NCBI GenBank assembly: GCA_030646755.1
Contig: JAUSKU010000033.1
Location: forward strand, 28-64,027
Source of the DNA: Deltaproteobacteria bacterium
GTDB taxonomy: Bacteria > Desulfobacterota > JAENJC01
DNA: 64,000 nucleotides
Reading direction: 5' to 3'
The position numbers and the translations under genes are program-made. A model generated the notes under the pieces. The model saw only the letters and a program-made list of their open reading frames with translations, ran no database searches and was not told where the DNA came from. Each line of letters starts with the position of its first letter. Within the stretch, counting starts at the first letter, position 1. Shown piece after piece: positions 30,596 through 50,358 of the stretch.

Positions 30596-30624
30596 TTGAC
30601 AAACTGTTGTTTATAAGCAACAAT
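30596..30624 (+). promoter_or_regulatory. TA promoter with palindromic operator
   Basis: TTGACA(30596) overlapped by TGTTGTTTATAAGCAACA(30605-30622). Confidence 0.55.
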
Positions 30625-30631
30625 GCTTTCT

Positions 30632-30964
30632 ATGAACACCGTCTATAATGTAAAATACTATGAGACGGAAAATGGTGAAAGGCCTTTTCAGGAATGGCTT
30701 GATAGCTTGAAGGATATAACAGGTCGAGCTAAAGTTCACATCAGGATAGACAGGGCGAGGCTTGGAAATTTTGGCGATACCAACTCCGTTGGTGAAGGTG
30801 TCCATGAACTGAAGATCAATTATGGTCCCGGTTACAGGATTTACTACGCGCTGGATGGTAAAAGGCTTATATTGCTGCTGTTCGGCGGCGATAAATCGAA
30901 ACAGTCGAGAGACATTAACCAGGCAAAAGCATATTGGAAGGATCAAAAGAGGAGAAAGAGATGA
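30632..30964 (+). CDS. RelE/HigB-like addiction module killer (Gp49-like toxin)
   Basis: PFQEWLDSLKD, RIDR..LGNFGD, GVHELKI.YGPGYRIYY, LL.GGDKS.Q. Confidence 0.9.
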   Translation: MNTVYNVKYYETENGERPFQEWLDSLKDITGRAKVHIRIDRARLGNFGDTNSVGEGVHELKINYGPGYRIYYALDGKRLILLLFGGDKSKQSRDINQAKAYWKDQKRRKR

Positions 30965-31266
30965 GTAAGAAAAAAACAGACTACCAAGAAGATTTGATAG
31001 AGTGGCTTAAAGACTCCGAACATGCTGCCGCCTATCTAAATGAAGCTATTGAAGAAGGAGACAAGGAATTATTCCTGCTGGCGCTGCGTAATGTTGCGGA
31101 GGCACGGGGCGGCATGTCTGCAATTGCCGAAAAGGCACATCTGAATCGTGAAAACCTTTACCGGATGTTGTCAAAAAGAGGAAATCCTGAAATCAAGAGC
31201 ATTTTCAATCTACTTCATGCTATAGGCTTGAGACTAACTATTGAGCCTGAATTAAAAGCTGCTTAA
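30961..31266 (+). CDS. HTH addiction module antidote protein
   Basis: AAAYLNEA, LLALRNVAEARGGM, LNRENLYRMLS..GNP. Confidence 0.9.
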   Translation: MSKKKTDYQEDLIEWLKDSEHAAAYLNEAIEEGDKELFLLALRNVAEARGGMSAIAEKAHLNRENLYRMLSKRGNPEIKSIFNLLHAIGLRLTIEPELKAA

Positions 31267-34297: not shown

Positions 34298-35329
34298 ATG
34301 TCAACAGAAGAAAAGAAGGAAACAGAGGGAACAGATATAAGCCGCCGTCAGTTTTTTAAGGAGGCTGGAGCGATAAGCGCTGCAGTTGCGGCTGCTGCCG
34401 CGTCAAGCGTCATTGCCCCTGAGGAAGCCGAGGCAAGGACGACATTTGCCGAGATGTTCCAGAAGAATTACAGGCTGATGACCGATGAGGAAAAGAAAGA
34501 GGCTATAGCACGTCTGGAACAGCGGCATTCTGAGGAATACGGCAAGAAGGTGACCGTTGACGGTTCTCCTGCCATAAAGGATGTGTTGTTCGGGTATGCC
34601 CTTAACATACAGAAGTGTATAGGATGCAGACGCTGCGTCCATGCCTGCGTCAAGGAAAATAACCAGTCCCGCCACGACCCTGAGATCCAGTGGATAAGGG
34701 TCATAAAGATGGAGAAGGGGAACTTCACTGTTGATGATATGAACAAGGGGTACCCGGCTAATGCTAATGAGTCCTTCGGTATCCAGGTTGGCGGAAACGC
34801 CTATAAGAACTCCGGCGTTGCTCTGGAAGGACAGCACTATTACCAGCCCGAAACCGTACCTGAGAAGGACGCTTTCTACTTCCCCATACAGTGCCATCAG
34901 TGCGAAAAGCCGCCATGCGTAAAAGTTTGTCCAGTCAGGACAACATACAGGGACCCTGACGGCATAGTCGTCATAGATTACAACTGGTGCATAGGCTGCA
35001 GGATGTGCGTGGCCGCCTGCCCGTACTGGGCAAGGAGATTCAATTGGGGCGACCCTAATCTCCCGGCTGAGGAGATGAACCCGAATACGCACTATCTTGG
35101 AAACAGGCCGCGCATGAGAGGAGTGGTTGAAAAGTGCACCTTCTGTCTCCAGAGGACAAGAAAGGGCAGATATACAGCATGCCTTGAAGTTTGTCCTGTA
35201 GGGGCAAGGAAGTTCGGCAACCTCCTTGATCCTGAGAGCGAGGTCAGTAAGATACTTGACAGGAAGAAGGTCTTCAGGCTGAAGGCTGACATGAACACAT
35301 ATCCCAAGTTCTTCTATTTTATTGATTAA
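34298..35329 (+). CDS. Tat-exported 4x[4Fe-4S] protein (NrfC/DsrO/HmcB-like)
   Basis: SRRQFFK; CIGCRRC, CHQCEKPPC, CIGCRMC, KCTFC. Confidence 0.9.
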   Translation: MSTEEKKETEGTDISRRQFFKEAGAISAAVAAAAASSVIAPEEAEARTTFAEMFQKNYRLMTDEEKKEAIARLEQRHSEEYGKKVTVDGSPAIKDVLFGYALNIQKCIGCRRCVHACVKENNQSRHDPEIQWIRVIKMEKGNFTVDDMNKGYPANANESFGIQVGGNAYKNSGVALEGQHYYQPETVPEKDAFYFPIQCHQCEKPPCVKVCPVRTTYRDPDGIVVIDYNWCIGCRMCVAACPYWARRFNWGDPNLPAEEMNPNTHYLGNRPRMRGVVEKCTFCLQRTRKGRYTACLEVCPVGARKFGNLLDPESEVSKILDRKKVFRLKADMNTYPKFFYFID

Positions 35330-35341
35330 AGGGGTACAGTT

Positions 35342-36580
35342 ATGAAAAGTAAGATCGATTTTGTTTTGGATTTCTTCTCTTACGGTTTGAAGGGTGGGGC
35401 TAAATATTATACATGGCTCGGCATCCTTGCACTGTTTATCCTCCCCTGGGCATACGGCAGCTACCAGCAGTTAGTAGCCAAAGGGATGATAGTCGCGGGG
35501 TATACGGACCAGATATCGTGGGCCATATATGAAGGGAACTTCGTCTTTCTGGTCGGAGTCGCTGCAGCGGCCGTGACGGTTGTCTTTCCCTATTATGTTT
35601 ACCATTACAAACCGCTGAAAAATGTGGTTCTGATTGGGGAGATGCTGGCGATAACCGCGGTCATCATGGTTATCCTCTTTATCCTGTTCCACATGGGAAG
35701 GCCCGACAGGCTCTGGCATTTAATACCGATTATCGGGATATTCAACTGGCCCAACTCCATGCTGACATGGGACATTCTGGTTCTTAACGGCTACCTGGGT
35801 CTCAATATTATCTGCGGTTTTTACAGCATGTACAAAAGGTATACCGGCCAACCCCTTAATGAAAAGTTTTATATGACATTTGTTTATATCTCCATTGTAT
35901 GGGCCCTCAGCATCCACACTGTTACTGCATTCCTGATGAACACAATGCCTACAAGGCCGATGTGGTTCCACTCATTAATGCCCATCAAGTTTATATCCAC
36001 GGCCTTTGCTGGTGGTCCCGCATTGATCATAGTGGCCCTCCTGACCGTAAGGAAGAATACCAAGCTTGAGATCCCGGATGAGGCAATTAATCTCCTGTCA
36101 CAGATCGTAGTCTGGTGTCTTGGGATAGCTCTCTTCCTTATTCTTTCCGAGGTTGTCACCGAGCTCTATCCAAGCACAGAGCATTCATTTCAGTTGAAGT
36201 ACGCAATGTTCGGGATGTTCGGCCTGACCAAGATGGCCCCATGGATGTGGGCATCGTATATAATGATGATCGGCTCCTTCATACTGCTGCTTATACCAAG
36301 CGTCAGGAAGAACTATACAATATTGCCAATAATATGTGTGACTCTCTTCATCGGAATCTGGATCGATAAAGGGCTTGCCCTTGTCATCCCAGGGATGATT
36401 CCATCCCCGATTGGCGAGTTCTCAGAATATACACCGACATGGATAGAGATCTTCATCGTTGCAGGTAACTGGGCCATCGGCTTCATGATCTTTACGATAT
36501 TGGCAAAGGGCGCTATAGGCGTTATGCTTGGCGATGTGCTGCATCCGAGCGCCGTAGGGAAAAAGGTCGCACACCATTAA
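35342..36580 (+). CDS. NrfD/DsrP/PsrC-family membrane quinol-interacting subunit
   Basis: W..Y.GNFVFLVGVAAAAV, MGRPDR, SMLTWD, SIHTVTAFL, YTPTW.E. Confidence 0.88.
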   Translation: MKSKIDFVLDFFSYGLKGGAKYYTWLGILALFILPWAYGSYQQLVAKGMIVAGYTDQISWAIYEGNFVFLVGVAAAAVTVVFPYYVYHYKPLKNVVLIGEMLAITAVIMVILFILFHMGRPDRLWHLIPIIGIFNWPNSMLTWDILVLNGYLGLNIICGFYSMYKRYTGQPLNEKFYMTFVYISIVWALSIHTVTAFLMNTMPTRPMWFHSLMPIKFISTAFAGGPALIIVALLTVRKNTKLEIPDEAINLLSQIVVWCLGIALFLILSEVVTELYPSTEHSFQLKYAMFGMFGLTKMAPWMWASYIMMIGSFILLLIPSVRKNYTILPIICVTLFIGIWIDKGLALVIPGMIPSPIGEFSEYTPTWIEIFIVAGNWAIGFMIFTILAKGAIGVMLGDVLHPSAVGKKVAHH

Positions 36581-36582
36581 AT

Positions 36583-36638
36583 GTAGGGGCACCTCTTGCA
36601 GGTGCCCAAAAAAGGGCGGTCACAAGGCCCGCCCCTAC
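36583..36638. repeat. GTAG-type REP pair
   Basis: GTAGGGGCACCTCTTGCAGGTGCCC..AGGGCGG..CCGCCCCTAC. Confidence 0.7.
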
Positions 36639-36659
36639 AGCGTTTAAGGAGAGAAGGGA

Positions 36660-37550
36660 ATGAAGACAAGAAGGATTATAAAAGTGACGTTTGGCGCCTT
36701 AGTTGTCGGTACAATGATCTTCGGAAGCGGTCGCTTTCAGACTCAGGCCCAACAGGAACAGCCTGTCCAATCGGCAGCTGCAACTGCTCCGGTAACGGAC
36801 TGCTTTGAAAGCAGGGAAGGTTATACTGCGGTAACGAGGGTTGAAAATGTGACGCCGGACGGCAACCCTAATGTAAAGTGTTCACCTACCACCAACGGGG
36901 TTTTGTGGTGGGGTGATCCGTTTGACGGAACTGTCCCTATGGGAGATATGCCTGCTTTTGGTCCTGATGATAAAACCAGGGGAGATTATGAGACTGAGGA
37001 GGCCGTGGTAAAGCCAAGGGAGCCCATGCTCATGTATTTCAATATGGAGCCTACCCAGAATTGCGCCTTCTGTCACAATGGCCAGACGGTTCCTTTTCCA
37101 ACGGACAAAAACCCAAGGCTGCTTGCAGCCCATCAGGACATAGTTGAGAATTCTATGCAGCTGATGCACGGCAGGGCTGCCTTCTGGTGCCTTGACTGCC
37201 ACAATGCAACAAACAGGAACAAGCTGATAGACCATAAGGGTAATGAGGTGTCCTTTAACCAGCCCCAGCAGCTATGCGGGAAGTGTCATGGTGAGGTATA
37301 CATCGACTGGAGGATGGGGATCCACGGAAAGAGGATCGGTTCATGGACGAAGGGCGGCAAGAAGAGGTGGTGGGTCTGCACTGAATGCCATAACCCTCAT
37401 ACGGTTCAGGTCAACAGGTTCCAGGCAATCAAACCGGAACTGGCTCCTGCGCTGCCGAAGGGGATGAAGGACGCAGCCCATGAACAGCACCACGGCGGAG
37501 GTCCCGCACCTGCTGCGGGTCACGGAGAGGCCGCTCCGGCAAAACATTAA
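36660..37550 (+). CDS. Periplasmic tetrahaem cytochrome c
   Basis: Signal peptide; CAFCH, CLDCH, CGKCH, CTECH. Confidence 0.88.
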   Translation: MKTRRIIKVTFGALVVGTMIFGSGRFQTQAQQEQPVQSAAATAPVTDCFESREGYTAVTRVENVTPDGNPNVKCSPTTNGVLWWGDPFDGTVPMGDMPAFGPDDKTRGDYETEEAVVKPREPMLMYFNMEPTQNCAFCHNGQTVPFPTDKNPRLLAAHQDIVENSMQLMHGRAAFWCLDCHNATNRNKLIDHKGNEVSFNQPQQLCGKCHGEVYIDWRMGIHGKRIGSWTKGGKKRWWVCTECHNPHTVQVNRFQAIKPELAPALPKGMKDAAHEQHHGGGPAPAAGHGEAAPAKH

Positions 37551-38046: not shown

Positions 38047-38902
38047 ATGATAAAAAGACTGCGGCTCTGCCATCCGATACCTCCCCTTTGCCGGGCGCTT
38101 AACGTCTCAGTGAGCGGATATTACGCATGGTCCACCAGGAAACCGTCAAAGCGTGCACTGGAAGATGCGAGACTGGAATTAGAGATACAGGCAGCCAATA
38201 AGAGAACCCGTGGCACCTGCGGCCCTGAGCGCTTGAAAGAAGACATGAAGGAGCATGGAGTTGATGCAGGGTATACGAAGGCTTCGTAAAAAGCTCGGCA
38301 TTAAATGCAAACAGGTAAAGAAGTTCAGAGCAACCACCGATTCCGATCACATACTGCCTGTGGCAGACAACCTTTTGGAACAGAGATTCGAGGCCATAGA
38401 ACCTAATAAGGTATGGGTATCAGACATTACCTATATACCTGCAGATGAAGGCTGGCTTTACCTTGCAGGGCATAAAGACATATGCACCGGCGAGGTAGTA
38501 GGGCATGCCATGTCAGACAGGATGACAAAAAACCTGGTCAGCCGGTCTTTATTCAGAGCAGTATCACCTAAGAGGCCTGAAAAAGGGCTTGTACACCATT
38601 CAGATCGTGGGAGCCAGTACTGCGCCCATGACTACAAAGAGCTTCTTGAACAGTTCGGCATGAAATCATCAATGAGCAGAAGAGGGAACCGTTATGACAA
38701 CGCCCCTATGGAGAGCTTTTGGGGAACGCTGAAGAATGAGCTTGTGCATCACAGTCGTTACAGAACAAGGCAAGAAGCACTGCAGGAGATCACCGAGTAT
38801 ATAGAGGTCTTTTACAACAGGCAAAGAAGGCAGAAACGGTTGGGGTATCTATCACCTGCCGCCTATGAAAAACAGTTTTATGAAAAAAGGCTCGCAGCAT
38901 GA
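38047..38902 (+). pseudogene. IS3 transposase OrfB (DDE), frameshifted near 38270-38290
   Basis: N-part (LC..L.VS.SGYYAW) and C-part (W..DITY, HHSDRGSQY, DNA.MESF) lie in different frames. Confidence 0.85.
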
Positions 38903-40921: not shown

Positions 40922-41992
40922 ATGAAGATCACTTTTGTAAAGAAGATAAAGGAAGACGGCGAGGAGTGCAAAAAATGCCGTGAAGTCACCGAGCGGTTAA
41001 AGGCAGGGAACGAGCTGACCCTTATTGATAAGATTGTTTATGCCGACATGAGGGACGCGGACTCGGTCGGCCTTAAACTAGCAAAAGAGCATAATATCGA
41101 CATTGCGCCCTTCTTTATAGTTGAAAGCGAAGGGAATGTAACGGTATATAAGACCTATATGGAGCTGAAGAAAAAGATTTTGAAGAAGGCCCTCGAAAAG
41201 GCCGATATCGAGATAGAGGAGAGGCGTAAGGCAAATGCGGGGATAGATAGCGGTGATCTGACGCAGTCGAAGACGAAAACGAAACCCGCTTTTGATATTG
41301 AACAGTTGAATGAAGAGTTTGAAAGGAAGATGCCCCAGGAGCTTCTGGAGTGGGGGCTTAAAGAGTTTCATCCATGCATAGCCTTTGCCTGGAGCGGCGC
41401 TGAAGATGTGGCGATTTTGGATATGTTGGTAAAGATCAACCCGAAGGCCCGCATCTTCACCCTTGACACAGGAAGGCTCAATCCTGAGACATATGACTTG
41501 ATTGACAGGGTGCGTGAAAGGTACGGAATCGATATTGAGGTCATGTTCCCTGACGCGGCAGAAGTTGAGGAGATGGTGCGGGAGCATGGGGTAAACCTCT
41601 TTTATCAGAGCGTTGAGAACCGCCAGCTCTGCTGTAATCTAAGAAAGGTCCAACCCCTGAAGCGCATGCTTTCCAGCCTGGATGCCTGGATAACAGGTCT
41701 GCGCCGTGGCCAGGCAGTCACAAGGACTGTATTAAAGAAGATAGAGATTGATGAGTCCTTCGGCGGGATTATAAAATTGAATCCCCTTGCCGACTGGAGC
41801 CATAAAGATGTCTGGGACTATATTCATAAAAACAACGTCCCATATAATGAGCTTCATGACAAGGGATATCCGTCCATCGGTTGCGCGCCATGCACCCGTT
41901 TTGTCAAACCAGATGAAGATATCCGCGCCGGCCGCTGGTGGTGGGAGTCTCCCGAAGGCAAGGAGTGCGGCCTACATGTCAAGTCCAAGTGA
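40922..41992 (+). CDS. cysH: Fe-S APS reductase (CysH-type) with an N-terminal CxxC thioredoxin-like domain
   Basis: LDTGRL, CC.LRK..PL, W.TG.R, YPSIGCAPCT, ECGLH; extra N-terminal domain of about 100 aa containing CKKC. Confidence 0.85.
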   Translation: MKITFVKKIKEDGEECKKCREVTERLKAGNELTLIDKIVYADMRDADSVGLKLAKEHNIDIAPFFIVESEGNVTVYKTYMELKKKILKKALEKADIEIEERRKANAGIDSGDLTQSKTKTKPAFDIEQLNEEFERKMPQELLEWGLKEFHPCIAFAWSGAEDVAILDMLVKINPKARIFTLDTGRLNPETYDLIDRVRERYGIDIEVMFPDAAEVEEMVREHGVNLFYQSVENRQLCCNLRKVQPLKRMLSSLDAWITGLRRGQAVTRTVLKKIEIDESFGGIIKLNPLADWSHKDVWDYIHKNNVPYNELHDKGYPSIGCAPCTRFVKPDEDIRAGRWWWESPEGKECGLHVKSK

Positions 41993-42222
41993 ACTAACCC
42001 TCTTTTTTATTATCCCAATAGCCTCTTGCAAAACTCTCCAAACTTGCCGGCTTTCCCAAGATAGAATTAGATCCCAGGTAGGACCATTTCTTTTCTCCAT
42101 CCCCTTCTACAGCCCAAAAAACCAGATACAGGCATGGTCACTTGACAACATTCTATTATAGGTTAAATTTAAGAAAATAAAATGTCTGTAGAGCGACAAA
42201 AATAAAACATAAGGAGGAAGGT

Positions 42223-42648
42223 ATGAGCAAGAAGATTATCGATGTGTTGAATGAGGACAGGGAATTTGAGCTTGGGGCCATAATGCAGTACATGGGCCAT
42301 CACTACGAGGCAGATGGACTGGAAAGCCCGGCGATCATTGAGTTGTTCAAGAAGACTGCTATCGATGAGATGAAGCACGCAGAGTTACTGGCGGAGAGGA
42401 TTGTATATCTGGGGGGAACCCCTTCCACAAAACCTTCCAAAATAATGAAGGGAGGGGAAATCAGGAAGATGGTAAGCGATGACCTTTCGGCTGAAAATGG
42501 CGCCATCGAGAGGTATAAAAAACATATCAAGCTCTGCGAAAAGGAAGGAGACCCTACCACAAGGTTGATGCTGGAAGGTATCCTTTCCGAGGAAGAAGGC
42601 CATGCAGACCTTTGGGAGACGACCCTGGGGATCAAAGGGAAGAAGTGA
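42223..42648 (+). CDS. bfr: Bacterioferritin-like protein
   Basis: E..AI.QY..H, DEMKHAE.LAERI.YLGG.P, EEEGH ferroxidase residues. Confidence 0.85.
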   Translation: MSKKIIDVLNEDREFELGAIMQYMGHHYEADGLESPAIIELFKKTAIDEMKHAELLAERIVYLGGTPSTKPSKIMKGGEIRKMVSDDLSAENGAIERYKKHIKLCEKEGDPTTRLMLEGILSEEEGHADLWETTLGIKGKK

Positions 42649-42818: not shown

Positions 42819-42865
42819 TTGACAATCTTTTTTTATATATTAAACTGATAACAGTTCTTATTATT
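42819..42865 (+). promoter_or_regulatory. Promoter with putative Fur/Per box
   Basis: TTGACA(42819)-N16-TAAACT followed by GATAACAGTTCTTATTATT(42847-42865). Confidence 0.55.
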
Positions 42866-42888
42866 GATTAATTTAAAATTAAGCGCCT

Positions 42889-43323
42889 ATGAAAAATAAT
42901 AAAAAAACTTTGTTTGTAAGAAAGAGCAGGCAGAGGGAAGTCATGTTAGAGGTCCTGAAAGGAACCAAGTCTCATCCTACTGCAGACTGGATTTATCAGG
43001 AGGTAAGAAAGAGTCTCCCTAAAATCAGTCTTGGAACGGTCTACAGGAATCTCAAGCTCCTCAAAGAAAGAGGTGAGATACTGGAACTCCATTACGGTGA
43101 CGGGCAGAGCAGGTTTGATGGGAATACTGAAAACCATTACCACTTTAACTGTCAGGGGTGCGGGAAGGTTTATGATGTCGAGGGACCTCTAAAAAAGGAT
43201 ATGGAAAGGGATATAGCTGAAAAGCTCGGTTTTGTCATCACGCATCATAGGGTCGAGTTCTATGGAGTTTGCAGGGAGTGCCGGGAGGAGGTAAGCTTGC
43301 ATCTTAAGGAAGAGAGACTATGA
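42889..43323 (+). CDS. perR: Fur-family regulator, PerR-like
   Basis: HPTA, SLGTVYRNL, RFDG...HYH..CxxC..VYD, CxxC; His/Asp ligand pattern of PerR. Confidence 0.8.
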   Translation: MKNNKKTLFVRKSRQREVMLEVLKGTKSHPTADWIYQEVRKSLPKISLGTVYRNLKLLKERGEILELHYGDGQSRFDGNTENHYHFNCQGCGKVYDVEGPLKKDMERDIAEKLGFVITHHRVEFYGVCRECREEVSLHLKEERL

Positions 43324-45212
43324 GTATAAAGGTTTATACGCTTTCGACATGTCTTTATTGCGAAAAGACGATAGAGTTTCTGAGGTCAAGCGGGATTGAG
43401 TTTGAGACCCTCGTCATGGACCAGCTTTCCGGCAAGGAGCAGGAAAAGGCCGTTGCCGAGGCATACAGGCTCAGTGGCCAGAGGAGCTACCCTGTTACTG
43501 ATGTGAATGGGACCGGGGTGATAGGGTACGATATTAAAAGGTTCAAGAAGCTATTGGCCATAGAAGAAAGAGGTGAACCGGCTCCTCAGGCCCCGGTTAA
43601 GGCCATAGTAGCTGATGATAAGGCAGTAGAAAAACTCAGGACTGAGGCACGGCAGACCGGATATCTTCTTAACCCTGAGGAAGAAGCAGTTAATACTCTG
43701 GTATCAGGGCTTTTGAAGAACGAGGTCAGATACGGGTACCGTTCTTGCCCTTGCAGGCTGTCAACCGGTGATTATAATAAGGACTGCGACATCATATGTC
43801 CGTGTGCATACAGGGACTGGGACCTGGATACTTACGGCCGGTGTTACTGCGGCTTGTATGTGACTGATGGCTTCATAGAGGGCGTCGCAAAGATCACACC
43901 AATACCCGACTCCAGAGAGGGCCTGCCTGCTGCCGGGACAAAAGAGGAAAGAGAAGGGAAGGTATGCGAGACCCTCGCCCAACCTATAAAAGCCGATATA
44001 AAGGAGATCATAAAGGTATTTTCATACACCCTTAGAGCGGATGAAAGGGCTGCCCTGAAAGAGGAATTTGAGAGGGTAGCTAAGTCCTTGGGGATAGAAA
44101 GGGTTGTTTGGCGGGGCGAAACAGCGGACGGGGTTAAAGAGGCAGGTGATGGAGGGAAGCTCAGTCTCAGTCTCCTGCAGGGGATGGATGAATATGTATA
44201 TTTCCTCAGGGTTTTCCCCGACAGGGAAGGAAGGATTGACAGCGAAGCCTCAAGGATCTGTACAGGATTCTTCCAGGAAAGGCCCAATGAGTTATACCAT
44301 TTGGATATCATTGTGGGGGAAGCCATTCCCGACCTTCTAACCAGGGATGTAAAGGGCCAGAGGCTCAAAGACGGAACCACAGTAATTTCCGGTTATGAGC
44401 TGAAGGAGAAAGTTCGGAGATACGTTATAAAACCCGTGTCGGCTGGTAAAGCCGACAAAATAGTAGACGATATCGTAAGGCTTGAGACCTGCTACAACCT
44501 GCTCCTTTCCCAGAGGCAGAAATACCTGCTCCTTGCAGACCAGCTTGGGAGGCTTGAAGAGGGAACAGCAACCAATATGGGGGTAATAAATCTCAACATC
44601 TCCAAGGCCGACGGGAAGACCCTCAAAGACTGGCTGCACTCCCTCAGTGTTAATTTCGGGGAGGTCTCCGGGATAACGGAAGAGCTTAAAAAGCATGCCG
44701 CTGATACGGAAGGCAGGAGAAGCGTCTTGCAGTCTATCCTTGAAAGCTGGGGGAGTGAGCCGGTAGAAGGCCTACGGATAATATCGGAGCCTCTTCAGTT
44801 CTATACCAGGACGGTTGGGGATGATTATGGGCGGCTAATCCAGAGGATAGAAGGGATAAGGAGGGAGATGGGGGATGTGATAACCATCTTAAGGACAAAG
44901 GTAGACCTCATTCAACAGGAACAGTCCCTGGACATACAGAGGAGCATGCATGAGACGGCCAAGACCCAACTTAAGATGCAGAGGGCTGTGGAGAGCCTGG
45001 AGGTTTTTATCGTGACATACTACCTGACTTCCCTCGCCAAGATAACATTTGAGGCCCTGGCAGCCCAGGGAAGGTACCTGCCTGATAAACCGATAATCCT
45101 GGCCGGCTACCTTATACCTGTATTCTTCATCTTTTCAATTTTCCTTTCGGGCAAGATAAGTCATCTCTTTGAGACTGTGAGAGGTCGTTTTAGGGGGAAG
45201 GGTCATGAGTGA
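43320..45212 (+). CDS. Fusion: glutaredoxin + ferredoxin:thioredoxin reductase catalytic domain + DUF3422/CorA-like membrane domain
   Basis: CLYC; CPCRL, ICPC, CYCGL; long helical stalk and two C-terminal TM helices (QLKMQRAVESLEVFIVTYYL). Confidence 0.75.
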   Translation: MSIKVYTLSTCLYCEKTIEFLRSSGIEFETLVMDQLSGKEQEKAVAEAYRLSGQRSYPVTDVNGTGVIGYDIKRFKKLLAIEERGEPAPQAPVKAIVADDKAVEKLRTEARQTGYLLNPEEEAVNTLVSGLLKNEVRYGYRSCPCRLSTGDYNKDCDIICPCAYRDWDLDTYGRCYCGLYVTDGFIEGVAKITPIPDSREGLPAAGTKEEREGKVCETLAQPIKADIKEIIKVFSYTLRADERAALKEEFERVAKSLGIERVVWRGETADGVKEAGDGGKLSLSLLQGMDEYVYFLRVFPDREGRIDSEASRICTGFFQERPNELYHLDIIVGEAIPDLLTRDVKGQRLKDGTTVISGYELKEKVRRYVIKPVSAGKADKIVDDIVRLETCYNLLLSQRQKYLLLADQLGRLEEGTATNMGVINLNISKADGKTLKDWLHSLSVNFGEVSGITEELKKHAADTEGRRSVLQSILESWGSEPVEGLRIISEPLQFYTRTVGDDYGRLIQRIEGIRREMGDVITILRTKVDLIQQEQSLDIQRSMHETAKTQLKMQRAVESLEVFIVTYYLTSLAKITFEALAAQGRYLPDKPIILAGYLIPVFFIFSIFLSGKISHLFETVRGRFRGKGHE

Positions 45213-45417
45213 GTTAAAGGAAGACATAGAGATGCTTAAAAAGGCCCTCGAACTGGAAGGGGAGGCTATGAGCAGGTATATAAAACATATTTCATCCATA
45301 AGAGACCCGAGAGTAAATGCGGCACTGGAAGGTTTCAGGCGGAATGAGACTGGGCATAAGAGCGAGATAGAAGGATTGATGGAAAGGCTGGATAAGACCT
45401 TAAAAGGCGATGGATAA
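45205..45417 (+). CDS. Half ferritin-like (two-helix) protein
   Basis: ALELE...Y and ETGH di-iron half-site; overlaps both neighbours. Confidence 0.75.
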   Translation: MSELKEDIEMLKKALELEGEAMSRYIKHISSIRDPRVNAALEGFRRNETGHKSEIEGLMERLDKTLKGDG

Positions 45418-45769
45418 GATGAGGGGATACAAGACAGTCCTTAAACTTTTAAATGAAGACCTTACAGCAGAAAGAGCTGCAGTCAGGACCTACAGGGAGT
45501 TTGCCGCCGTATCGTTCAGTGCTGAGACAAGGGAAATGTTCATGGAGTTTGCCAGGTCCGAACAGGGGCACGCCAACGGCCTTCTGAAGCTCATAATGGA
45601 TATAGAAAACGGTGAAAATGAGGTCGTGTTTTACTGTCCTGTATGCGGCTGGGAGGTGAACTTCGGGAAGAGGCCGGAACCTGGAAAAGAGGCAAGATGC
45701 AGGATGTGTGGCGTCATATTTGTCCTGGCCGAGGTTGATGGAGATTACCAACTACAAAAGGTAGTTTAA
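45410..45769 (+). CDS. Half ferritin-like domain plus CxxC..CxxC ribbon
   Basis: AE..A...Y, EQGH; CPVCG and CRMCG. Confidence 0.75.
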   Translation: MDKMRGYKTVLKLLNEDLTAERAAVRTYREFAAVSFSAETREMFMEFARSEQGHANGLLKLIMDIENGENEVVFYCPVCGWEVNFGKRPEPGKEARCRMCGVIFVLAEVDGDYQLQKVV

Positions 45770-45943: not shown

Positions 45944-46351
45944 ATGGAAAAGATAAACTGGGATGACAGTTTCAGCGTCGGCGTCAAAAAGATAGACGAA
46001 CAACACAGGCAGATAATCGGAATTATAAATAAGCTGATCGATTCGACCAATGCCTCGGTTGATTCGGAATTGATTTCCGACACATTAATGGAAATGGCAC
46101 AATATGCATCCGATCATTTTGAAACAGAGGAACATTTGCTGACGGAATATAAATATCCCGACTATAAATCTCATAAAGACCACCATATAGAGTTCAGAAA
46201 AAATACAGTCAACTTCAGCATGGATACTCTGAAATATAAAAGGACTGTTCCTGTAGAAATCTTGACATATCTTAAGGAGTGGTGGGTAAACCATATCCTT
46301 AAGATTGATATGAAATATAAGGCATTCTTTGTCGAGAAAGATGTAAAGTAA
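45944..46351 (+). CDS. Bacteriohemerythrin
   Basis: W...SVGV..IDEQH, HF..EE, H...H, W..NHI...D. Confidence 0.92.
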   Translation: MEKINWDDSFSVGVKKIDEQHRQIIGIINKLIDSTNASVDSELISDTLMEMAQYASDHFETEEHLLTEYKYPDYKSHKDHHIEFRKNTVNFSMDTLKYKRTVPVEILTYLKEWWVNHILKIDMKYKAFFVEKDVK

Positions 46352-46377: not shown

Positions 46378-47250
46378 ATGAGAGAGATCATCAACTGGCT
46401 TGCCGGGATTGAATGTAGGGCGTCTAAGATTTACGAAAAGGCAGAATCCATATTTCAAGATGATTCAGAACTTGCTGATTTCTTAGGGCATCTGGCCGAA
46501 GAAGAAAAGATGCATTACGAATCTATGTGCAAGGCCGCTGAATTGATAGACAACAAAGACATTCCTTCCATTGTGGCCCTGATTGATTCCACAAAGCAGG
46601 GTGTTGAGGTCCCTTTCCTATTGTGTGAAGCGAAGATAGAGGCAAAGGCCTTAAATAAAAAGGACCTGCTTGATTTCATGGTCTCAACTGAATTCTTGGA
46701 ATGGAACCAGTTATTTCTTTACGTAATTAATACATTGAAGCATGAACACAGGGAATTTATCCCGATGGTAGCAGGCATCCAGCAGCATAAGAGATCAGTA
46801 GAAAGGTTTATTAAGTCTCAACCCGGATATGAGGAATTTCTTAAAAGGTTGAAATCCCTCCCTGCAATATGGCGGGAGAAGATACTGGTGGTGGATGATA
46901 CTAAAATGATAGTTGATCTCCTTCACGCAGTCCTAAAAGAGGAAGGTGACATTGAAACTGCCGCCAATGGCAAAGAGGGGCTTAAGAAGATAGGCGAGAA
47001 ATACTTTTCGGCCATTATAACAGATCTGAATATGCCCGTCATGAACGGAATAGAGTTCTACAATAAGGCAGTTGAGATGTATCCAAATATAAAGGAGCGA
47101 TTCTTGTTTTTCACAGATGCTTTTGATGAAGAGTACAGTCTGTCATTTTTCAGGAAAAACGACATCAGGTATCTTCAGAAGCCTTCGCCTATAGGCGATA
47201 TAATTAAAGCTATCGTAGAGATTCAGAGCAGGGAGATGTTAATTAAATGA
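46378..47250 (+). CDS. Ferritin-like N-terminal domain plus C-terminal receiver domain
   Basis: IE..A..IY, LAEEEKMH; ILVVDD, TDLNMP.MNG, KP. Confidence 0.75.
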   Translation: MREIINWLAGIECRASKIYEKAESIFQDDSELADFLGHLAEEEKMHYESMCKAAELIDNKDIPSIVALIDSTKQGVEVPFLLCEAKIEAKALNKKDLLDFMVSTEFLEWNQLFLYVINTLKHEHREFIPMVAGIQQHKRSVERFIKSQPGYEEFLKRLKSLPAIWREKILVVDDTKMIVDLLHAVLKEEGDIETAANGKEGLKKIGEKYFSAIITDLNMPVMNGIEFYNKAVEMYPNIKERFLFFTDAFDEEYSLSFFRKNDIRYLQKPSPIGDIIKAIVEIQSREMLIK

Positions 47251-47374: not shown

Positions 47375-47423
47375 AATATTGTTAGGCAGTTCAATCAAAC
47401 CCATAAACCTAAAGGAGAACGAT

Positions 47424-48827
47424 ATGAACAGAAAGCAAAATTACCAACTCGAAAGGAGTGCCGTGAAAACGAGGCCCATAATACATCGGTACTCGATGGC
47501 GTTTGCCGCAGTGTTGGTTGTTTGCGGTGCGGGAACGGTTTCCGCCGCCGAAGAAGACTTCACCTCTCTGGTCAGCCGACTACAGAAAGAGAAACCAGCT
47601 TTCGCCAAACGTCATCAGGAGCTGCTCTCGGAGCGCTATGACCTTGCCGACCGCACCGCACAGGGCGTCACGATGTCCGGCGGCAAGCCGGTGCAGGAGG
47701 GGGTGCGCGTGAGGCTGCCCAAGGACATGACGTGGGAGAAGCTCGCCGCCATGTCGCCGGAAGATATCGAGACAAAGAACCTCTGGCCAGCCGGCTTTTT
47801 CCCCTTGCCGCATCCTCATCACGAAGCGGGTGGCATGCTGTTCCCGCAGCCGCTCATTGACGAAACCAAGCTCCAGACCGGGCGCGACCTGACGCGCTTT
47901 GACCTCGACTTCGACTTTCCGAAACATCTCGTGCCCGAGTTCCCTGCGCCAATGTATCTGACAACGCGGCCGGATTTGGGCGATGTGTCACGCGGCCAGC
48001 TCGTCACGCTGAACAACTACTATGACCTGTTCAAAGATGTTCTGAATCCCAAGCAGCTCGAAGGTGTGCGGTTGCTGGTCACGCCGTTTGCCCAGGCTCA
48101 GTTCAACGCCACCGATGACCGGCGCAGCCTCAAGGCTTCCCAGGGCGTTGCCTGTTTTGACTGCCACGCCAACGGCCATACGGACGCGGCCACGCACACA
48201 GTCGGGGACATCCGCCCGAACGAGCACCGTCATCGCATTGATACCCCTTCGCTGCGGGGCGTCAACATCCAGCGTCTCTTCGGTTCCCAGCGTGCCCTGA
48301 AAACCGTGGAAGACTTCACCGAGTTCGAACAGCGCGCCGCCTATTTCGACGGCGACCCTGCACAGGCCACGCGCAAAGGCGTAAACATCCTCGAGCGCGG
48401 CAGCCAGGTTCACTTCATGAGCGAATTTGAGGCGCTTCTCGACTTCCCGCCCGCGCCCAAGCTTAACGTTTTTGGCAAGCTCGACCAGGCCAAGGCCAGC
48501 GAAGCCGAGTTGCGCGGACAGACGCTATTTTTTGGTAAGGCCCAATGTGCCACATGCCACACGCCGCCCTATTACACGGACAACACCATGCACAACCTGC
48601 GCGTCGAACGCTTCTTCAACGAGAAGATGATCAATGGTCGGAAGGCCAGCGTCGATGGCCCCATCAAGACCTTTCCGTTGCGCGGCATCAAGGACTCGCC
48701 GCCGTATCTGCACGACGACCGGCTGCTGACGCTCGATGACACAGTCGAGTTCTTCAACCTCGTCTTGGAATTGAAGCTGAATGACCGGGAGAAGAAGGAC
48801 TTGGTAGCGTTCATGAGGGCGCTGTAA
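47424..48827 (+). CDS. Dihaem cytochrome c peroxidase-superfamily protein
   Basis: CFDCH, DTPSLRG, G..LF.GKA.CATCH, IKT..LRGI..SPPYLHD. Confidence 0.8.
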
Positions 48828-48891: not shown

Positions 48892-50358
48892 ATGACCATG
48901 AAAGACGAGAAGAAGAAACTGACTACCAGAAACGGCGCCCCCGTTGTGGACAACCAGAACGTCATGACAGCTGGACCGCGAGGGCCGCAGCTACTGCAGG
49001 ATGTCTGGTTTCTCGAGAAACTGGCCCACTTCGACCGGGAGGTGATTCCCGAGCGGCGGATGCACGCCAAGGGGTCGGGGGCTTACGGTACCTTCACCGT
49101 CACCCATGACATCACCAAGTACACCAGGGCCAAGATCTTCTCCGAGGTGGACAAGAAGACCGATATGTTCCTCCGTTTTTCCACGGTAGCCGGCGAGCGC
49201 GGTGCCGCCGACGCCGAGCGGGACATCCGGGGCTTTGCCATGAAATTCTATACCGAGGAAGGCAACTGGGATTTGGTGGGCAACAACACGCCCGTTTTCT
49301 TCCTGCGCGATCCGCTGAAGTTCCCCGATCTCAACCATGCAGTGAAACGCGATCCACGCACCAATATGCGCAGCGCCAAGAACAACTGGGATTTTTGGAC
49401 ATCACTGCCGGAGGCGTTGCACCAGGTTACCATAGTCATGAGCGATCGCGGCATTCCTGCCACCTATCGCCACATGCACGGTTTCGGCAGCCATACCTTC
49501 AGCTTCATTAACGCCAAGAAAGAGCGGTACTGGGTCAAGTTCCACTTCAAGACCCAGCAGGGGATCAAAAACCTGACCAATCAGGAGGCTGAGGCACTTA
49601 TCAGCAAGGACCGGGAAAGCCACCAGCGCGACCTCTACGAGAGCATCAAGAAGGGGGACTTCCCCCGCTGGACCTTGTATATCCAGGTGATGCCAGAGAA
49701 GGACGCGGCAAAGTGCCCCTACAACCCATTCGACCTTACCAAGGTGTGGTTCCACAAGGAGTATCCTCTCATAGAAGTGGGGGTGCTGGAGCTGAGCCGC
49801 AACCCTGAAAACTACTTTGCCGAGGTGGAGCAAGCGGCCTTCAACCCGGCCAACGTCGTACCCGGCATCGGCTTCTCGCCAGACAAGATGCTTCAGGGAC
49901 GTCTTTTCTCCTACGGCGATGCACAGCGTTACCGGCTCGGGGTGAACCATCACCAGATCCCCGTCAACGCCCCCCGCTGCCCTTACCACAGTTTCCACCG
50001 CGACGGCGCAATGCGGGTGGACGGCAATTACGGCAGCACTCTTGGGTACGAACCCAACAGTTACGGCGAGTGGCAGGAGCAGCCGGATTTCGCCGAACCG
50101 CCTCTGAGCCTGGAAGGGGCCGCGGACCACTGGAACCACCGCGTGGATGAGGATTACTACTCCCAGCCCGGCAAGCTCTTCCGCCTGATGAGCGCCGACC
50201 AGCAGAAGGTCCTCTTTGAAAACACCGCCCGCGCCATGGGCGATGCGCCCAAGGAGATCAAAATTCGCCACATCGGCAATTGTCTGAAGGCCGACCCGGC
50301 CTATGGCAAGGGGGTTGCAGACGCACTTGGAATTCCGCTGAGCGAAGTTCCAAAGTAA
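48892..50358 (+). CDS. katA: Monofunctional haem catalase
   Basis: [49 protein letters not shown]. Confidence 0.97.

Follow-up and report, generated by a model that had tools for sequence, protein, structure and literature searches.

The stretch analysed here, called the window throughout, is 64,000 nt of contig JAUSKU010000033.1 from a Deltaproteobacteria bacterium (assembly GCA_030646755.1), and the element of interest in it is a gene (protein P0001) encoding a three-part membrane protein. This consists of a glutaredoxin-like (Grx) domain, a six-cysteine ferredoxin:disulfide reductase (FDR) domain of the kind found in the catalytic subunit of ferredoxin-thioredoxin reductase (FTR), and a complete DUF3422 module, set off from the first two by some 35 residues of disordered linker. 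The open reading frame (ORF) is uninterrupted and its translation runs to 630 aa without a stop. Its ATG (43320–43322) overlaps the TGA (43321–43323) of a 144-aa Fur-family gene by 4 nt (ATGA, within CTATGAGT), which bears out the single ORF overlapping a perR stop codon that had been noted in a preliminary description of this DNA. The three domain calls of that description (Grx, FTR-type and DUF3422) are all matched by Pfam above the gathering scores: Glutaredoxin at residues 3–65 (E 2.8e-8; 34.3 bits, cut-off 22.9), FeThRed_B at 104–183 (E 1.6e-20; 73.6 bits, cut-off 22) and DUF3422 (PF11902) at 508–605 (E 2.3e-17; 63.7 bits, cut-off 25), the last scoring only over profile positions 311–406 of 418, i.e. 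the last quarter. The cysteine motifs listed there are likewise found in the translation (CLYC at 11–14, CPC at 143–145 and again at 160–162, CYC at 175–177), and the long stalk with two transmembrane (TM) helices appears in the structure model as a helical hairpin following a helix of about 90 residues.

The same architecture recurs in relatives. Of 8000 candidates scored in a word-indexed search through 5.8 billion proteins, 19 protein clusters reached E ≤ 1e-3; these are 36–100% identical over 97–100% of the length, save for one fragment of 495 aa, and all three Pfam domains are present in 17 of them, so that the homologues are not always separate genes, a point which the preliminary description had left to be settled. 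In one source a homologue bears the name ‘ferredoxin-thioredoxin reductase catalytic subunit/glutaredoxin’. Scanning of species-representative genomes gave 20 loci with full-length relatives (34–41% identity), belonging to Nitrospirota (7), Planctomycetota (11, including Brocadiaceae and ‘Ca. Wunengus’) and archaea (2, one of them in Hydrothermarchaeota). The eight redox cysteines (two Grx, six FDR) are invariant in 35 of the 35 full-length sequences in the alignment, among which identity reaches down to 34% and which stem from many independent assemblies. With regard to sequencing reads it should be noted that run X1 matches the window without any difference and may be its source, and so is not independent, and that runs X2–X10 (word shares 0.05–0.12) represent relatives; the parts of the window left uncovered in X2, X5 and X10 carry no weight. 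Run X2, from another study, contains a relative about 92% identical, of which a Logan contig of 1826 nt spans the FDR domain, the linker and DUF3422; in its linker 155 letters replace 158 with the frame kept, and there is an in-frame GCC insertion at 44758. For the check across the linker proposed in the preliminary description there is thus a contig, from this relative, that crosses in frame. An assembly or annotation artefact, in which a sequencing error within the linker had merged two or three genes into one, could draw on the poor conservation and low model confidence of residues 189–224, but given the same uninterrupted architecture in 35 sequences from many independent assemblies and the in-frame contig from the other study we regard it as hardly credible. 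The fusion is genuine.

The head of the protein is of the ordinary Grx–FDR kind, as it matches solved proteins by sequence, by structure and in the CYC motif. With phmmer the best solved match to the FDR domain was 4TPU (Methanosarcina acetivorans; 2.7e-30, residues 100–219), and 7PWE, the Grx/FDR fusion of Desulfotalea psychrophila, matched at 1.1e-29 over residues 3–189; the same 7PWE was ranked first by Foldseek with the full-length model (E 6.7e-12, 31–32% identity). The soluble fused FTRs mentioned as known in the preliminary description therefore have solved and close representatives in 7PWE and 4TPU. For the Grx domain the phmmer matches include A. fulgidus Grx-1 (3ic4, 5.8e-14) and methanoredoxin (5cax, 1.4e-8), and the fold is reflected in target-normalised Foldseek TM-scores of 0.75–0.79 to 3ic4, 5cax and 3nzn; the NCBIfam YruB-family model scored 45.2 bits, under its cut-off of 88.55, and the domain is not assigned to that subfamily. 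Membership of the FDR domain in its family (PF02943) is reflected in C143, C145, C160, C162, C175 and C177, each invariant (35/35), as are C11 and C14 of the Grx site. In the FTR/FDR line the passage of ferredoxin electrons via a [4Fe–4S] cluster to an adjacent disulfide is established (PMC7278568). By analogy, the chemistry expected of the fusion head would run from ferredoxin through [4Fe–4S] and the disulfide to the Grx CxxC. In five genomes of the same phylum Grx and FTRB are neighbouring, unfused genes, with no DUF3422. One in-frame TGA is present in each of the Grx-like ORFs of G013, G014, G020, G023 and G026, all of the same phylum, and the window fusion gives weak matches to the NCBIfam Uxx-star and FtrB double-selenoprotein models, which suggest selenocysteine versions of the Grx/FTRB pair in relatives.

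The remaining two-thirds of the protein belong to DUF3422, a label that appears in the sources as ‘uncharacterized membrane-anchored protein’. Residues 215–630 matched 330 of 1.84 billion representatives at E ≤ 1e-3 (35 at ≤ 1e-10, 13 at ≤ 1e-30) with phmmer, and among the 150 matches listed most are proteins of 400–470 aa with no head. These stand-alone proteins, which Pfam assigns to DUF3422, align over nearly their whole length to the C-terminus of the fusion (e.g. P0025, residues 29–422), indicating that its C-terminal 416 aa are a complete, if divergent, DUF3422 module; the ESM Atlas DUF3422 feature score of the fusion is 0.96. The AlphaFold2 model of this domain, made with a 92-sequence alignment (pLDDT 91.3, pTM 0.77), has, in its own numbering, an alpha/beta domain (13–157) followed by helices at 161–215 and 218–263, a 94-residue helix at 275–368 and a final helix at 377–414. 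Its last two helices form the membrane hairpin (about 559–582 and 591–614 of the full-length protein), and on the Kyte–Doolittle scale a strong hydrophobic segment lies near 590–612 (up to 2.43) and a marginal one at 562–580 (1.32). Residues invariant in 35/35 sequences are R525, T526, Q533, Q535, S536, Q540, S542, T546, Q550, Q554 and V557 in the stalk and Y568, F577 and P600 in the hairpin region, and heptad repeats run through them (526/533/540/554/568 and 536/550/557). The nine invariant Gln, Ser and Thr residues on the helix leading from the stalk into TM1 constitute the strongest conservation in the fusions, and this polar stripe holds none of the usual transition-metal ligands. Such a continuous polar face fits a lining or a tight helix–helix interface, and its largely heptad spacing is more in line with a face that lines or packs than with a merely passive anchor. 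A literature search that did not extend to subscription journals and supplements found no publication naming DUF3422, PF11902 or COG4949, in keeping with the preliminary description, whose author knew of no account of this architecture. DUF3422 was found in two of 201 genomes of the window's phylum (that of the window itself, G000, and one with a stand-alone gene), and tblastn of the stand-alone P0025 against plasmids gave two weak, unannotated matches. Around 78 metagenome DUF3422 loci the neighbours (epimerase 14, UvrA-like 10, antiporter 9, CrcB-like 7) reflect lineage synteny, and the survey of these neighbours showed no recurrent functional partner.

The fusion does have recurrent partners, which are two small genes called fl70 and fl119. 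Judged from their sequences, fl70 and fl119 together resemble a rubrerythrin cut between its two helix pairs. fl119 matches Pfam Rubrerythrin (E 1.4e-6; 29.2 bits, cut-off 22.8), and the NCBIfam EncB_fam model matches fl70 at 1.2e-7 and fl119 at 1.2e-4, both under the cut-off (fl70 is under every curated cut-off). In the PDB each of the two proteins matches one half of a ferritin-like bundle at a time (8w1d, bacterioferritins, EncFtn/EncB): fl70 aligns to the repeated halves of a bacterioferritin chain and fl119 to both halves of the Dps-like 8w1d. The E and RNExxH motifs of fl70 are kept in 17/17 sequences and the di-iron and Cys4 motifs of fl119 in 18/18, the ribbon CPxCGW...RCRMCG of the latter being invariant; against the model of the rubrerythrin rubredoxin-like domain (RUBY_RBDX) this ribbon gives E 0.031, under the cut-off. 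In the genome scan fl119 immediately preceded the fusion, in the same orientation, at 17 of the 20 loci (gap –1 to 290 nt) and fl70 at 16 of the 20. The three loci with neither comprise two archaeal ones and one that starts at the fusion gene, and at one of the archaeal loci a canonical rubrerythrin, a flavodiiron-type protein and a ferritin lie upstream instead. In the window the order is reversed, the fusion gene coming first and fl70/fl119 downstream, and contigs of the close relative in run X2 show this same order. Among 80 metagenome DUF3422 loci the pair was upstream of both fusions (2/2) and beside none of the others (0/78). A survey of 201 genomes from the phylum of G201 (Planctomycetota) found DUF3422 in four (three long fusion ORFs and one stand-alone gene) and fl119 homologues in five, including all three with the fusion, the best copies being beside it; in the 201 genomes of the window's phylum fl119 was found in two, namely G000 and one with a weak match (8.4e-6). 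Paralogous fl70/fl119 pairs are followed by a gene for a 180-aa rubrerythrin-family protein at L045:4408–5562, L047:1059–5568, L044:4793–5983 and L046:4347–5560. In L045 (1280–4411) genes for pyruvate:ferredoxin oxidoreductase subunits come next, the beta subunit having a cytochrome b5-like tail, and L047 has, by eye, the same gene order; rubredoxin genes lie, by eye, near the paralogous pairs in L044 and L046.

Grx–FDR is not the only redox head to be found on DUF3422. Pfam analysis of ten DUF3422 relatives gave redox heads in four (P0028, P0035, P0040 and P0045). P0028 (486 aa) has an N-terminal ferredoxin-like domain (Fer4 35.4 bits, cut-off 21.1), and its stalk sequence is among the closest to that of the window fusion; P0035 (517 aa) also has a ferredoxin-like domain at its N-terminus, for which the best model (Fer4_7, 22.7 bits) is under its cut-off of 27; in P0040 and P0045, which are very distant fusions of Grx, FeThRed_B and DUF3422, the CPC–CPC spacer is shortened. 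Of 79 metagenome DUF3422 ORFs, three carried an 8-Cys ferredoxin-like head, two Grx–FDR and the rest no head; these heads were scored by hidden Markov model (HMM) and by cysteine counts, and motif expressions missed the looser ferredoxin and FDR motifs of P0035, P0040 and P0045 that Pfam found. The same DUF3422 branch is thus joined to low-potential iron–sulfur modules of two kinds. The 8-Cys-headed genes, recognized by cysteine count and by eye, are at L072:4965–6467, L073:4959–6449 and L074:2571–4091, with no fl70/fl119 beside them. At a single locus, in G195, a stand-alone DUF3422 gene follows an 84-aa BFD-like [2Fe–2S] gene; the row there (L041, G195:C16, 4337–10255) runs on one strand from a membrane-fusion protein through an RND pump and the BFD-like gene to DUF3422, of which only the BFD-like domain is Pfam-confirmed.

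The genes around the fusion in the window (Table 1) lie on one strand in the order PAPS-reductase-domain gene, ferritin, PerR-like gene, fusion, fl70, fl119, hemerythrin, ferritin-like/receiver gene, 482-aa ORF and catalase, and together they form an oxidant-defence cluster. The Fur-family regulator is called PerR-like because the PerR NCBIfam models, which rank first for it, score 115.1 and 114.5 bits, under their cut-offs of 200 and 180. With overlaps of 4 and 8 nt between successive genes, perR, the fusion, fl70 and fl119 appear to share a single message for their translation. RNA-library contigs of the relative in run X10 bridge fusion/fl70 (45022–45283) and fl70/fl119 (45365–45537), at most a weak hint of co-transcription given that this is a relative and that DNA carry-over is possible. 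Promoter-like sites in the region number 11 against 8.0 ± 3.1 in shuffles, so the site ahead of the PerR-like gene is to be read as a consensus match only.

Table 1. Positions in the window of the fusion gene, the parts of its product and the neighbouring features.
Feature	Position	Strand	Details
Ferritin/Dps-like gene	42223..42648	+	Pfam Ferritin 6.9e-31
Promoter-like site	42819..42846	+	TTGACA, 16 nt, TAAACT; 10/12 consensus matches, ahead of PerR-like gene
PerR-like Fur-family regulator gene	42889..43323	+	144 aa; Pfam FUR 5.8e-32
Grx–FDR–DUF3422 fusion gene (P0001)	43320..45212	+	630 aa; ORF list, translation, Pfam, homologues, alignment
Glutaredoxin-like domain	43326..43556	+	Residues 3–79; active site C11-L-Y-C14
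FTR-catalytic-subunit-like FDR domain	43617..43886	+	Residues 100–189; CPC/CPC/CYC
Variable linker	43884..43991	+	Residues 189–224; pLDDT <50, indels in alignment
DUF3422 cytoplasmic alpha/beta domain	43998..44432	+	Residues 227–371; pLDDT mostly >85 (domain-only model)
Three long helices, the last being the stalk	44448..44990	+	Residues 377–429, 432–477 and 501–557; structure models
Helical hairpin, two predicted membrane helices	44994..45161	+	Residues ~559–582 and ~591–614; short loop
fl70, two-helix ferritin-like half domain	45205..45417	+	70 aa; E...ExxH; overlaps fusion end by 8 nt
fl119, ferritin/rubrerythrin-like half with C-terminal Cys4 ribbon	45410..45769	+	119 aa; E...ExGH, CPVC...CRMC; overlaps fl70 by 8 nt
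Hemerythrin-domain gene	45944..46351	+	Pfam Hemerythrin 1.7e-13
Catalase gene	48892..50358	+	Pfam Catalase 1.7e-194

Several further features of the window deserve mention. Two TTGACA sites, which precede the ferritin gene and the PerR-like gene respectively, are each followed by an AT-rich near-palindrome (42142–42200 and 42819–42885; TTAAATTTAA and TTAATTTAAAATTAA), a candidate shared operator. The PAPS-reductase-domain gene (40922–41992, +; Pfam 4.2e-52 at residues 154–326) has an N-terminal extension of about 150 residues with a CKKC motif, which may be another fused thiol-redox module in the cluster. The receiver gene at 46378–47250 (+) encodes 290 aa with a C-terminal receiver domain (2.6e-15) and an N-terminus with weak ferritin-like, hemerythrin and COQ7 matches, and its product could be a di-iron sensing receiver protein. 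Between it and the catalase gene lies the 482-aa ORF (47379–48827, +), of about 60% G+C against about 40–50% around it, which has two CxxCH motifs and no Pfam family at E ≤ 1e-4 and may encode a di-haem protein that was gained by horizontal transfer and belongs to a family not yet described. Further upstream, three genes at 34298–37550 (+) appear, by eye, to encode a Tat-signal 4Fe–4S protein, an NrfD-like membrane protein and a multi-haem cytochrome, a trio resembling the quinone-interacting complexes of anaerobes; also by eye, an IS3-type transposase-like ORF lies at 38255–38902, and the segment 29232–31266 holds a 378-aa protein with a TIR-like ‘FISYSHDD’ start and a toxin–antitoxin-like pair (30623–31266).

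The preliminary description had taken the C-terminal part of the fusion to resemble DUF3422 with a CorA-like architecture, and as far as topology is concerned Foldseek agrees with it. Foldseek of the domain model against the PDB gave 45 matches at E ≤ 1e-3, and among the matches listed all are CorA/Mrs2 chains (E 2.6e-5 to 1e-3, probability 0.69–1.00, about 340–457 aligned columns) except YwmB at rank 33; CorA matches were likewise found with the full-length fusion model. This sole non-CorA entry among the matches listed, YwmB of B. subtilis (2fpn; E 4.1e-4, 178 columns), is a protein whose function is likewise not known and presumably matches the alpha/beta domain (model residues about 13–157). 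With VIA-align the C. jejuni CorA ranked first (Z 13.4, root-mean-square deviation (rmsd) 2.6 Å, 118 residues aligned), and Mrs2, M. jannaschii CorA and CmaX followed at Z 11.1–12.4; spectrin-type bundles reach the same scores, and by the guidance for this program helical bundles are not settled by a Z under about 13. On these models the elements of the fusion body follow one another as in CorA, and the fold is plausibly the same. A canonical CorA is encoded elsewhere in the window's genome (G000:C7:32291–33160, 3.5e-73).

The reading that we favour, with a probability of about 0.4, is that the fusion is a redox-controlled DUF3422 membrane unit with a ferredoxin-linked head. DUF3422 would in that case be a membrane device in its own right, most probably an oligomer with the CorA fold that acts as a channel or transporter for some ion, of which one subclade would have acquired a ferredoxin-linked redox head, Grx–FDR here and a ferredoxin-like domain in the sister proteins. 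The head, presumed to work like 7PWE, would report the low-potential redox state of the cell: reduced ferredoxin would keep the [4Fe–4S]/disulfide centre and the Grx dithiol reduced, whereas on exposure to peroxide or oxygen the split rubrerythrin would be oxidized and draw electrons via its Cys4 centre, so that the head would become oxidized. The split rubrerythrin might thus be a dedicated partner of the head, either an oxidant-reactive electron sink or a peroxide reductase on the same ferredoxin pool. Docking or a change of conformation, rather than a disulfide within DUF3422, would convey the oxidation of the head to the DUF3422 ring, and Grx may additionally repair disulfides near the membrane. 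The most specific form of this idea, that DUF3422 is an unrecognised, GMN-less branch of CorA-fold channels and that this subclade is the first channel gated by ferredoxin/thiol state through its head, with the split rubrerythrin as electron sink, we consider improbable.

A number of observations weigh against the favoured reading. The CorA/Mrs2 matches of Foldseek have TM-scores of 0.17–0.34 and rmsd values of about 15–24 Å; the CorA-family entries of VIA-align (Z 11.1–13.4) tie with spectrin and other helical bundles, and their alignments cover model residues of about 180–406, leaving out the alpha/beta domain. A local HHalign comparison of 92 DUF3422 sequences with 19 CorA sequences (ORFs from genomes of the same phylum, in which the GMN motif was found as a control) gave a probability of 0.15 and an E of 0.4; residues 575–595 of the fusion contain no GMN or GxN, and the loop between TM1 and TM2 is poorly conserved. 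As there is also no match of Pfam CorA (PF01544) to the fusion at E ≤ 0.1, the fusion body is not a member of the CorA family, and of the CorA-like tail proposed earlier the topology stands but kinship by motif and profile does not. TM1, besides being only marginally hydrophobic (1.32), contains K574 and E578. The DUF3422 part has no conserved cysteine, the best being C391 (18/35), C216 (11/35) and C314 (7/35), which makes a classical thiol switch in the channel body unlikely and means that any coupling of head and body must be by docking or conformation; the attached thiol relay through which the preliminary description had a channel being gated therefore lacks a conserved target. Nor is the genetic context uniform. 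PerR lies beside the fusion at none of the 20 genome loci (tblastn with the window PerR, E ≤ 1e-4), so the link to PerR drawn in that description is confined to this genome and others close to it, and the peroxide connection rests on this genome together with the nature of the partner genes. As to those partners, the nearest solved structures to the fl119 ribbon are LysW-type zinc ribbons (E 0.05–0.3; 0.05–0.9 with rubredoxins included), and a ribbon that is as LysW-like as rubredoxin-like may bind Zn rather than Fe. The separate Grx/FTRB genes of the five same-phylum genomes have no fl70/fl119 in flanks of about 1.5 kb, from which it follows that the pair is not a general FDR partner, and paralogous fl70/fl119 pairs (38–42% identical) occur away from any fusion in planctomycete genomes.

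Much of the same evidence can be read in terms of a membrane-anchored antioxidant enzyme, in which DUF3422 would be an oligomeric scaffold only, with no ion flux or gating, and Grx–FDR and a split rubrerythrin peroxidase would repair thiols and remove peroxide at the inner membrane face. The complete and invariant catalytic cysteines, the equivalence of the head to a known soluble enzyme, the long, disordered and tether-like linker, the DUF3422 part with no conserved cysteine as a target, and the partners of peroxide-reducing type in a stress-cluster context are all in its favour, but a highly conserved module of 416 aa with a stand-alone family of its own (330 representatives) exceeds what an anchor needs, conservation peaks in the stalk/TM1 helix, and genomes of the same phylum have soluble Grx and FTRB pairs with no anchor at all. 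Moreover, a ferredoxin-like head, which has no role in disulfide repair, is found independently on this membrane module. We therefore hold the anchored enzyme to be somewhat less probable and prefer the redox-controlled unit to it, because the body is large and widespread, because the stalk and TM1 are its most conserved part and because a ferredoxin-like head has also been acquired.

Iron or manganese offers another way to connect the parts. DUF3422 would conduct Fe2+ or Mn2+, fl70/fl119 would be an EncFtn-like ferroxidase or buffer at its mouth, and the Grx–FDR head would supply electrons for iron release or cluster rebuilding under peroxide stress. To our knowledge all characterised CorA-fold proteins carry divalent cations, and the matches of fl70/fl119 to the EncB_fam models and to bacterioferritin and Dps-like halves, the ferritin gene adjoining perR in the window, the ferritins near both archaeal fusions and the BFD-like [2Fe–2S] gene ahead of the stand-alone DUF3422 of G195 would all suit such a unit. 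What makes it unlikely in our judgement is that the conserved stalk residues are Gln, Ser and Thr and not His, Asp, Glu, Cys or Met, that the other 78 DUF3422 loci have no recurrent iron-related neighbour, that the BFD case is one locus and that the EncFtn-type matches are under curated cut-offs. Least probable of the functional alternatives is a redox sensor without transport, the DUF3422 body signalling the state of the head to a protein or to the membrane: HHE_RR receiver-domain matches do occur within 2–3 kb upstream of the fusion at 9 of the 20 loci, many of them planctomycete, and in the window a receiver gene (46378–47250) lies downstream, but Pfam finds no kinase, HAMP, PAS or output domain in the fusion, and the receiver-domain matches are generic and missing from the nitrospirote loci.

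The Grx–FDR fusion, the DUF3422 family and rubrerythrin-like proteins are each already known. What is new, within the reach of our searches, is that all three come together in a single membrane protein, that the di-iron partner is split, and that other DUF3422 proteins bear a ferredoxin-like head in parallel. With 330 representative clusters at E ≤ 1e-3, DUF3422 is a family of considerable size and of no known function, and the subclades headed by a redox enzyme or a ferredoxin-like domain provide the first concrete and testable clue to it, namely coupling to the low-potential ferredoxin pool. Within the FTR/FDR line of enzymes the protein would also be the first that is tethered to a membrane, and the co-occurring split rubrerythrin gives a defined three-protein system for reconstitution. 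Its hosts (anammox Brocadiaceae, groundwater Nitrospirota, Hydrothermarchaeota) are anaerobes that have not been cultured, and little is known of how they cope with oxidants. If a gated channel is indeed involved, strict anaerobes such as anammox planctomycetes and groundwater Nitrospirota would gain an immediate, transcription-independent ionic response to oxidants; if the module is just a tethered reductase, it would be a modest extension of the known Grx–FDR fusions.

Compared with known systems, the window fusion is closest in its head to 7PWE, with which it shares the order of Grx and FDR, the Grx CxxC and the CPC...CPC...CYC set; however, 7PWE is soluble and has 196 residues, whereas the fusion runs 430 residues further into the DUF3422 membrane module and has an extra, partly conserved cysteine (Cys156, 23/35). 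4TPU is the best sequence match to the FDR domain, including the CYC motif, but it has no Grx and no membrane part. The molecule in that entry is named ‘Rubredoxin’ and presumably includes a domain of the rubredoxin type, which would be the counterpart of the fl119 Cys4 ribbon, although in the window the Cys4 element is on a separate di-iron half protein. Typical DUF3422 members, at 400–470 aa, have no redox head, unlike the fusion. With CorA, Mrs2 and CmaX the fusion body as modelled has in common the order of alpha/beta domain, long helices, stalk helix continuing into TM1, TM2 and basic tail, but the stalk bears a Gln/Ser/Thr stripe where CorA has an acidic funnel, and the body differs further in having no GMN, no detectable sequence homology and low TM-scores. 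Finally, fl70 and fl119 jointly hold E, ExxH, E, ExxH and a C-terminal Cys4 in the order of rubrerythrin, from which they differ in that the bundle is split over two polypeptides.

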